Assembly: GCA_963815095.1 (NCBI GenBank)
Contig: CAWFFH010000004.1
Coordinates: 128,001-192,000, forward strand
Direction of reading: 5' to 3'
From: Candidatus Bathyarchaeota archaeon
Lineage (GTDB): Archaea > Thermoproteota > Bathyarchaeia > Bathyarchaeales > Bathycorpusculaceae
DNA length: 64,000 bases
Positions within the stretch are counted from its first letter, which is position 1; every line of letters begins with the position of its first letter. This document shows, piece after piece, positions 11,161 through 12,165 of this stretch. The position numbers and the translations under genes are program-made. The notes below the pieces were generated by a model that saw only the letters and a list, made by a program, of their open reading frames with translations, had not been told where the DNA came from and did no database searches.

Positions 11161-12165
11161 ATGAAAGAGACTCCGCTTACCAAGAATGCGATAGGCATAA
11201 TTCATAGCGAAGGGCAATCTCCTTTAACCGAAGCTTCCAAAAAAATACTCTCAAACAGATACGACGACGGAATCCTCTGTGAAGCATTGCATTATTATGC
11301 CCAAGAAGTCCTTCCAAACGTTTTACCTATTTTTCCAGCCCTAATGGCCCTGTCCAGCGGAGCAGTAGGAACTTTCCCAGAAAACTCACAGCCGATTTCC
11401 ATCGCAATGCTGCTCATAACTTCCTCTGGGGACATCCACGATGACATTGTGGACAATTCAAAAGAAAAGTTTACAAAAAAGACTCTTTTTGGAAAATATG
11501 GTAAAGATATTTCTCTTTTGGCAGGCGATCTGCTCTTAATTCAAGGAATGACAGCACTTCAAAATGAATGCAGCAACTTATCAGCCAAGCAAGGGAAAAC
11601 CATAGCTAATTCAATTGCCTCGGCAATGCTTGAAATCGTAAAAGCAGAAGCCCTCGAGATCTCCCTGTGGCATAAACCAAACGTTACAGCCGAAGAGTTT
11701 TTTGAGGTAATCCAGTTGAAGGCGAGAGTAGCTGAGTTTCACTGTAGACTTGGCGGGATAGTTGGCGGAGGAACAATTGTAGAAATTGAAAATCTTGCAA
11801 GTTATGGCAGAACAATCGGGGTATTATCAACGATAAAAGAAGAATTTATGGATATGACGTGTTCTAGTGAGCTTAATCATCGAGTTAAACATGAATTGCC
11901 GCCTTATCCTATGCTTTGTGCAATGCAGAACAAAACATTAAATGAGAAACTCGTGAATTCCAAGAACGCCGAGTTCTCTCTTGCTGATCTTCAAGAAGTT
12001 TCAGCAACAGTGATGGGGTCTTTTGAAGTTGAAAAACTAATCTCTGGGCTTAAAGAATTTGGAAGAAAAGAATTGTTGAATAATCCGCTGTTAAAAGGAA
12101 ATGCGAAACCAAAAGAGTTAGTGGTTCTGCTTGAAGCTTTAACAGAAGAATTGGAGCTTATTTAG
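11161..12165 (+). CDS. Polyprenyl-synthetase-fold protein with degenerate motifs (ComQ-like prenyltransferase candidate)
   Basis: FARM HDDIVD and LLAGD present; GKRxRP absent, post-FARM RRG absent, SARM replaced by EEFMD. Confidence 0.8.
   Translation: MKETPLTKNAIGIIHSEGQSPLTEASKKILSNRYDDGILCEALHYYAQEVLPNVLPIFPALMALSSGAVGTFPENSQPISIAMLLITSSGDIHDDIVDNSKEKFTKKTLFGKYGKDISLLAGDLLLIQGMTALQNECSNLSAKQGKTIANSIASAMLEIVKAEALEISLWHKPNVTAEEFFEVIQLKARVAEFHCRLGGIVGGGTIVEIENLASYGRTIGVLSTIKEEFMDMTCSSELNHRVKHELPPYPMLCAMQNKTLNEKLVNSKNAEFSLADLQEVSATVMGSFEVEKLISGLKEFGRKELLNNPLLKGNAKPKELVVLLEALTEELELI

Follow-up and report, generated by a model that had tools for sequence, protein, structure and literature searches.

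Here, we describe a gene that resembles an isoprenyl diphosphate synthase (IDS) gene and, just upstream of it, a very small peptide gene. Both lie in a 64,000-nucleotide stretch of DNA from a Candidatus Bathyarchaeota archaeon (contig CAWFFH010000004.1, positions 128,001 to 192,000). This whole stretch is called the window in the following, and feature positions refer to it. The features at the locus are listed below, with the IDS-like gene first.

11161..12165, plus strand: candidate peptide prenyltransferase with IDS fold, 334 amino acids; open reading frame (ORF) with an ATG start, recognized by PF00348, an AlphaFold2 (AF2) model, family conservation and the ratio of nonsynonymous to synonymous substitution rates (dN/dS)
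11003..11059, plus strand: candidate precursor or substrate peptide MNQKRAIKAKAPVNWGGW, 18 amino acids, ending in GGW; kept in orthologous loci with synonymous changes
10991..10997, plus strand: Shine-Dalgarno-like GAGGTGA, 5 nt upstream of the peptide ATG, read from the sequence
12265..13500, plus strand: MFS-type membrane transporter, 411 amino acids, candidate exporter of the modified peptide (PF07690, 47.5 bits)
10075..10962, plus strand: trypsin-like (S1) protease with an N-terminal signal-like hydrophobic stretch (PF00089, 35.3 bits)
14589..16184, minus strand: membrane histidine kinase (HisKA_7TM, PAS, HisKA and HATPase domains by Pfam), 2.4 kb downstream of the enzyme gene

The 334-residue protein has the fold of a trans-IDS. 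It matched Pfam PF00348 (polyprenyl_synt) with 56.9 bits against a cut-off of 27, and an alignment-based AF2 model had a pLDDT of 92.7 and a pTM of 0.91. The top Foldseek matches of this model were trans-IDS structures, among them octaprenyl diphosphate synthase (OPPS) 5ze6 of Escherichia coli (TMq 0.77) and geranylgeranyl diphosphate synthase (GGPPS) 1wy0 (TMq 0.82). The best NCBIfam IDS model, IdsA_Meth, gave 87.8 bits against a cut-off of 468. All 13 matching NCBIfam IDS models were far under their own cut-offs, and no ComQ-named model was found among the NCBIfam matches listed at E values up to 1. A protein atlas gave no functional lead, its matches being confined to the 'polyprenyl synthetase' clusters of Bathyarchaeota to which the protein itself belongs. 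In their source records, homologues go by the names of geranylgeranyl, heptaprenyl or octaprenyl diphosphate synthase. These names, set against a score of 87.8 bits where 468 are called for, support, as far as sequence goes, the original prediction, made from the letters of the window, that such a gene would be mis-annotated as a GGPPS for archaeal lipids.

To locate the active-site motifs, we used a HMMER alignment to the Pyrococcus horikoshii GGPPS 1wy0 (E value 1.5e-16) and a MAFFT alignment with the two canonical IDS paralogs of the same genome. Residue for residue, the motifs lie where the original prediction had placed them. The first of the aspartate-rich motifs (FARM), HDDIMD in 1wy0, is HDDIVD (residues 93–98, nt 11437–11454). 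LPNVLPIFP (residues 51–59) aligns with GGKRxRP of canonical IDS enzymes (GGKRVRP in 1wy0), and the protein is devoid of the Lys and Arg residues of GKRxR. KEKFTK (residues 101–106) aligns with xxRRGK (within ETRRGKPT in 1wy0), the second Arg of RRG being replaced by F104. AE (residues 162–163) aligns with GQ and KA (residues 187–188) with KT. The second motif rich in aspartate (SARM), DDVLD in 1wy0, has been changed to EEFMD (residues 227–231, nt 11839–11853). Finally, the C-terminal tail is acidic (EELELI); the tails of the two canonical IDS proteins of the genome are KRNK and QRKK. Following structural work on farnesyl diphosphate synthase (FPPS) and GGPPS, we take isopentenyl diphosphate (IPP) to be bound by GKRxR, by the second Arg of RRG and by the basic tail at the C-terminus, whereas K103, K187 and R241 presumably bind the allylic diphosphate.

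We then counted residues in 115 homologues of at least 290 amino acids. As had been claimed, the FARM is intact: D94 is present in 115/115 sequences, and D95 and D98 are present in 114 each. K103, at the first Arg position of RRG, occurs in 115/115, K187 in 114/115, E163 in 111/115, E166 in 114/115 and R241 in 113/115. In the second motif, residue 227 is D (65 homologues) or E (50 homologues), E228 is found in 109 and, after F-x, D231 is found in 114. The family-wide consensus is (D/E)(D/E)xxD. In a wider alignment of 90 sequences, H93, D94, D95, D123, G220 and P248 were invariant and D98 nearly so. The original prediction was right that DDxxD has been changed to EEFMD. The change is conservative, and the motif is altered, not lost, because the three acidic positions are kept and distant members of the family carry the canonical DDxxD. 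The dN/dS of the enzyme gene was 0.15–0.28 relative to three orthologues. By these comparisons, the enzyme gene is under purifying selection and its motif pattern is selected, reflecting neither decay nor chance drift.

The genome (2.69 Mb, 98% complete) contains four PF00348 matches. Two of these (214.6 and 184.3 bits) are canonical IDS genes elsewhere in the genome. One has GGKRWRP, DDIED, RRG and DDILD and adjoins the gene for a type-2 IPP isomerase (427 bits, cut-off 281); the second adjoins a protein resembling the geranylgeranyl reductase family. The two divergent matches (64.6 and 57.4 bits) are the window gene and a 330-amino-acid paralog with similar motif changes on contig C6. This paralog (6974–7966 of locus L043, minus strand; G000:C6:35072-50001) is part of a second copy of the gene arrangement, in which the order is a leucyl-tRNA synthetase gene (divergent, upstream), the IDS-like gene, an antisense small ORF, an MFS gene, a gene for a 75-amino-acid helix-turn-helix-like protein and a TIGR04084 radical SAM/SPASM gene. 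The antisense small ORF encodes MKKATKKEMRKPVVFAW and has a Shine-Dalgarno-like site upstream. The TIGR04084 gene of this cluster (305 bits, cut-off 225) is the only one in the genome.

The 18-residue peptide noted in the original prediction corresponds to a real small ORF. Its gene sits in the 198-nt gap between the protease and enzyme genes, 102 nt upstream of the latter. We compared 12 peptide genes from the window's clade and its nearest neighbours. In all 12, GAGGTGA precedes the start codon by a few bases. The codons for Gly, Lys and Arg vary synonymously while the peptide is kept and the 3' flanks diverge, and this holds even where the synonymous divergence (dS) of the enzyme gene exceeds 1. 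Within the window's clade, it is the GGW at the C-terminus of the peptide that is invariant. Judged by this pattern of codon changes, the small peptide gene is real and conserved. At locus L028/L128 (G009:C1:60061-75062), the closest orthologue of the enzyme gene is broken (three TGA and six TAA codons inside the match) and the upstream peptide ORF, MNQKRAIKAKAPANWGGW, is intact; the genome in question has further family copies.

To survey the family, loci were collected from 40 relatives and phylum members and from public metagenome-assembled genomes (MAGs), and their ORFs were called and labelled with hidden Markov models (HMMs) built for this study. The 128 HMM matches were reduced to 114 with at least 190 bits and at least 250 amino acids, and to 107 after removal of identical proteins. 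The dropped matches include pseudogene pieces, fragments and three canonical-like proteins of 283 amino acids. The latter (L050, L051 and L058, from another family of the phylum) clustered with the IDS-like family at first and were excluded as canonical-like since they keep GGKRIRP and DDxxD; their genes resemble ordinary short IDS genes and have other surroundings.

Similar small ORFs recur by the family genes in two fixed places, either upstream on the same strand or antisense between the IDS-like and MFS genes. We defined a loose rule (9–30 amino acids, at least three Lys or Arg, at most two Asp or Glu, Trp in the last four residues, at most 400 nt from a family gene), which gave a match at 79/107 family genes. 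A plausibility filter that called for a fixed position plus a ribosome-binding site or a family-like motif left 80 candidate peptides at 70/107 genes; under a relaxed rule, about 82/107 genes have one. The filtered set comprises 77 unique peptides of 9–23 codons, and about half a dozen peptides that look doubtful were kept in the counts. The lengths of the 77 peptides peak at 13–18 residues, and they carry a net charge of +4.5 on average; MKRTKPIRPIRMYWA, MKKPIRPIRGYWW and MSKKQKIVRFGGW are typical. Trp is the last residue in 35 of the 77 and the penultimate one in 34, and Gly precedes Trp in 29. A (K/R)P motif is present in 41/77 peptides and a hydrophobic-Arg pair in 57/77. Non-coding DNA within 400 nt of family genes contains 2.38 matches to the rule per kb, versus 0.51 per kb elsewhere in the same loci, and a stricter rule applied to the window's own genome gave eight matches among 17,862 small non-coding ORFs, two of which flank the two IDS-like paralogs; these enrichment figures are descriptive and not a blind test, because the peptide rules were drawn up after the first examples. 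No loose-rule peptide was found beside the two canonical IDS genes of the genome.

The gene neighbourhood is also conserved. An MFS gene comes next on the same strand in 86/107 family genes (three more lie at a contig edge) and is at most three genes away in 93/107. A TIGR04084 radical SAM/SPASM gene lies at most three genes downstream in 50/107; a search of the literature on this radical SAM family turned up no relevant paper among those listed. A trypsin-like protease gene is located upstream on the same strand in 12/107. The enzyme encoded by this gene is possibly a maturation protease. A histidine kinase gene directly adjoins the IDS-like gene in L032/L033, where no MFS gene follows, and lies three genes downstream in three further of the 107 loci. 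By this weak link, the kinase of the window is possibly a receptor. A few loci carry tandem family copies before one MFS gene (L035, G030:C13, at 6953–8032 and 8019–9026; also L069, L121 and L138); the two copies might form a heterodimer or be recent duplicates. The leucyl-tRNA synthetase gene that is often found divergently upstream, and which was identified by reading the sequence rather than by a family search, is ordinary synteny.

Other neighbours in the window are a tRNA-Pro (CGG) gene (9799–9876, plus strand) between an ERCC4-domain nuclease gene (8965–9696) and the protease gene, and, just downstream of the gene cluster, genes for a small PAS-domain protein (13570–14025, plus strand) and an M50 peptidase with CBS domains (16488–17552, minus strand).

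Of 301 genomes sampled from the phylum, 46 had a match at E values up to 1e-20. Nearly all of the records with a name are MAGs of Bathyarchaeota or Bathyarchaeia. A second branch carries the source names Methanosuratincola, Methanomethylicaceae or Verstraetearchaeota; this Methanomethylicia branch keeps the pair of IDS-like and MFS genes and has peptides such as MIKKMKSYNPTPVRLWVPG. We built a quick maximum-likelihood tree of 103 rows, in which support was given by SH-aLRT values only. The family was monophyletic relative to the two canonical paralogs (SH-aLRT 99). The window gene fell into a 7-row clade (100) in which the upstream peptide and the MFS gene are present in 7/7 and the protease gene in 6/7 rows (these six are included in the 12 loci with a protease gene). 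This clade lies within a 13-row clade (99), itself within a 27-row clade (100). Some rows of the 13-row clade outside the seven have both an upstream and an antisense peptide. Because the 7-row clade is nested among such rows, the arrangement in the window looks derived, the antisense peptide and an adjacent radical SAM gene apparently having been lost. Four contigs with the gene cluster (L082, L133, L136 and L097) are labelled Limnocylindrales, Caldiserica, Actinomycetota or Nanoarchaeia MAGs. L082, L133 and L136 fall inside the family in the tree, L082 and L133 within clades of Bathyarchaeia rows, and mis-binning is therefore the likely cause of their odd labels.

Taken together, the loss of the IPP site and the presence, in many archaea, of an adjoining gene for a Trp-ended peptide and of an exporter gene indicate that the enzyme probably prenylates a peptide. 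We favour, with a probability of roughly 0.6, a ComQ/PalQ-like peptide prenyltransferase whose product would be exported. We infer the reaction, including the chain length of the donor and the acceptor residue, along the following lines. The 334-residue enzyme would bind and ionize an allylic prenyl diphosphate, with the invariant FARM and the acidic second motif holding Mg2+ and K103, K187 and R241 lending help. IPP would no longer be bound. Instead, the C-terminal Trp region (GGW) of the 18-residue peptide would enter the former acceptor pocket and become prenylated, as in the bacterial ComQ, PalQ and StheQ systems. The downstream MFS protein would then export the resulting cationic lipopeptide, which the upstream secreted trypsin-like protease might trim. 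The original prediction of a Trp peptide in place of IPP as the acceptor is therefore supported as far as sequence goes, by the linkage of the enzyme gene to the Trp peptide and the MFS gene.

Several observations weigh against this interpretation. To begin with, neither sequence nor fold puts the protein nearer to the indole prenyltransferase Ord1, a free-tryptophan farnesyltransferase (PDB 9V4J; preprint 10.64898/2026.08.29.745113), than to canonical IDS enzymes: Ord1 ranked 38th in Foldseek (TMq 0.73), its sequence matched with an E value of 7.5e-11, and it stood below canonical IDS enzymes in both comparisons. A Gln just upstream of the SARM is described as common to trans-IDS-like peptide prenyltransferases and Ord1 (PMC13290415); in the archaeal family this position is T224, with Thr in 90/115 members. 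Likewise, the second motif of the family is not the ND-type pseudo-SARM of ComQ and StheQ. On the side of the peptide, 28/107 genes are without a Trp peptide by the loose rule and 37/107 without a filtered one, and the rules themselves were retrospective. A relaxed search of these 37 genes (any aromatic residue near the end, other start codons) added about a dozen family-like peptides. Seven of these have no Trp and finish in a motif with Phe or Tyr, such as PVRFSI or PVRYIIP (L039, L127, L109, L111, L114, L132 and L141; for example KKPVRFSI and VPVRYIIP). The enzymes next to such peptides form a sub-clade whose sister is the clade with the second copy of the window's genome, and these ends would be unexplained if Trp were the universal acceptor. 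Trp is therefore not present throughout, and different clades may use different acceptors. An ATA or ATT start after a purine-rich site seems to be required for some peptides, including family-like ones in L032 (6698–6784), L033 (6721–6825) and L042 that have no in-frame ATG, GTG or TTG. Furthermore, the radical SAM/SPASM enzyme encoded in about half of the loci could be the main peptide modifier, and it is by position that the protease and the kinase are assigned their roles.

Of the alternatives, the one that survives best is that the enzyme uses a prenyl diphosphate with a non-peptide acceptor or water, acting like a terpene synthase or a small-molecule prenyltransferase, that the MFS protein exports an isoprenoid and that the peptide is a regulator or accessory factor. 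The FARM and the acidic second motif are kept here as in enzymes that only ionize the allylic substrate, and the Gln of the known Trp prenyltransferases is absent. The lack of Trp in the peptides of some clades is also consistent with this explanation, as is the link to the MFS gene (86/107), which is tighter than that to the peptide (70/107). It would, however, leave unexplained why a basic, Trp-ended peptide has been kept from Bathyarchaeia to Methanomethylicia and in two orientations, and inspection of the alignment by eye, which is not a formal test, revealed no NSE/DTE-type terpene-synthase motif that lines up. We consider this alternative unlikely.

Also rather improbable, in our estimation, is that the peptide is the substrate but is modified at a residue other than Trp, or that the radical SAM/SPASM enzyme makes the defining change; the IDS-like protein would then place its prenyl group on Arg, on Lys or on a terminus, or would chiefly serve to bind the peptide. 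Consistent with this, the most widely kept peptide motif is (K/R)P(I/V)R rather than Trp, TIGR04084 genes are found within three genes downstream of 50 of the 107 family genes, and in some clades Phe or Tyr stands where others have Trp. However, the loci of the window's clade are without a radical SAM gene, the genome's single TIGR04084 gene being in the other cluster, and the part of the peptide that is invariant in this clade is the C-terminal GGW. That the FARM is invariant speaks for catalysis and not just for binding.

It is quite improbable that the protein is still an IDS that elongates chains, with an IPP site of an unusual kind, and that it supplies prenyl diphosphates for lipids or quinones. 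The PF00348 match is above its cut-off, the fold is closest to long- and medium-chain IDS enzymes, and DDxxD and some of the basic residues that follow the FARM are retained in distant members. Nevertheless, the protein lacks the Lys and Arg of GKRxR, the second Arg of RRG and a basic tail at the C-terminus, and all of the 13 NCBIfam IDS models that match do so far below their cut-offs. Moreover, two canonical IDS genes are already present in isoprenoid contexts of the genome, whereas the neighbours of the window gene are a peptide gene and a transporter gene, not lipid genes. Finally, heteromeric IDS enzymes with divergent partner subunits exist and a few loci do carry two family copies in tandem, but we consider it highly improbable that the protein is a regulatory subunit without catalytic activity in a heteromeric prenyl diphosphate synthase. 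Dead IDS subunits generally lose their Asp-rich motifs, whereas H93, D94 and D95 are invariant and D98 nearly so in the 90 aligned sequences. In the loci examined, the family gene has no canonical IDS gene as its neighbour, and both copies of the tandem pair examined (L035) belong to the divergent family.

If the family does consist of peptide prenyltransferases, a broader proposal can be made, which we offer tentatively and at somewhat less than even odds. An ancient three-gene module, consisting of a micro-precursor, an IDS-derived prenyltransferase and an MFS exporter, with a radical SAM/SPASM enzyme or a secreted protease added in some lineages, may be common to Bathyarchaeia, Methanomethylicia and related Thermoproteota. 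Its products would be cationic lipopeptides of very small size, prenylated on Trp and essentially without a leader. They would be the first ribosomal peptides with a prenyl group in archaea and could act as cell-to-cell signals sensed by membrane histidine kinases or as membrane-active antimicrobials. Should the peptide-prenyltransferase interpretation itself be right, hundreds of archaeal genes labelled GGPP, heptaprenyl or octaprenyl synthase would be mis-named, and such mis-naming would distort lipid-pathway reconstructions for uncultured Bathyarchaeia. Archaea would also possess a lipopeptide system that is widespread and has precursors shorter than any others known for this chemistry, which would bear on the thinly documented peptide signalling or antagonism in these organisms. 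If a bare peptide of 13–18 residues ending in GGW is accepted, the enzymes could serve as simple tools for C-terminal lipidation.

How does the archaeal gene pair compare with known systems? With canonical archaeal GGPPS enzymes (1wy0 and the genome's own copy on contig C3), the family shares the fold, the FARM and the Lys of KT. It differs from them at GKRxR, the second Arg of RRG, GQ, DDxxD and the basic tail, and in a gene context that is unrelated to lipid synthesis. Ord1 (PDB 9V4G-J), an all-alpha indole prenyltransferase, is a precedent for the use of the IDS fold in aromatic prenylation; unlike the proposed archaeal enzymes, it farnesylates free tryptophan, and its key Gln is not conserved in the archaeal family. 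A 2026 review lists ComQ, ChrPC and PalQ as trans-IDS-like peptide prenyltransferases, calls them bacterial and describes all of them as targeting Trp (PMC13290415). ComQ, PalQ, StheQ and ChrPC are each paired with an adjacent Trp peptide. We found no example of an archaeal IDS-fold peptide prenyltransferase in the literature.

According to the published descriptions, ComQ keeps the FARM and has no true SARM (PMC10853753), and StheQ, a ComQ homologue with the IDS fold, has a single FARM-bound Mg2+ and an NDxxD pseudo-SARM (preprint 10.64898/2026.08.29.745113). The substrate of StheQ, StheX, has 69 residues, with Trp second from the C-terminus (same preprint), and a penultimate Trp is likewise found in 34 of the 77 archaeal peptides. 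The ComQ/ComX system of Bacillus and the StheQ/StheX system of Sphaerobacter thus resemble the archaeal pair in the trans-IDS fold, the FARM and the adjacent peptide with a near-C-terminal Trp. In ComQ and StheQ, IPP condensation has been replaced by indole prenylation of a peptide, and a similar replacement is proposed for the archaeal enzymes. The original analogy with ComQ accordingly holds for the shared gene logic. It is inexact for a degenerate second motif, because the archaeal family keeps the acidic triad and has Thr at the upstream Gln position: the ND-type pseudo-SARM of ComQ and StheQ binds no metal as described, whereas the archaeal enzymes retain (D/E)(D/E)xxD. In addition, the ComX and StheX precursors are several times longer than the archaeal peptides, and the comP/comA partners of the ComQ system have no counterpart among the fixed parts of the archaeal module.

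The likeness to PalQ of Paenibacillus alvei is also instructive. PalQ is an enzyme of the isoprene-synthase superfamily that is described as prenylating PalX, encoded next to it, on a Trp that is strictly C-terminal (PMC10853753). PalX is a long precursor of the NHLP type from which a leader is cleaved; the archaeal peptides have 9–23 residues in total. The archaeal system differs further in its Thr for the Gln upstream of the SARM, its hosts, its MFS partner and the radical SAM enzyme that is often present. A histidine kinase is part of the PalQ cluster; the kinase gene near the window gene has a weak link to the archaeal family. In both systems, an enzyme of the IDS superfamily is encoded next to its own (in the archaeal case, putative) peptide substrate. 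The comparison as a whole gives strong, though not conclusive, support to an archaeal version of the bacterial enzyme–peptide pair. The acceptor Trp of PalX is C-terminal and PalQ is reported to favour GW or GGW ends (PMC13290415), the latter being the very end of the peptide encoded in the window.

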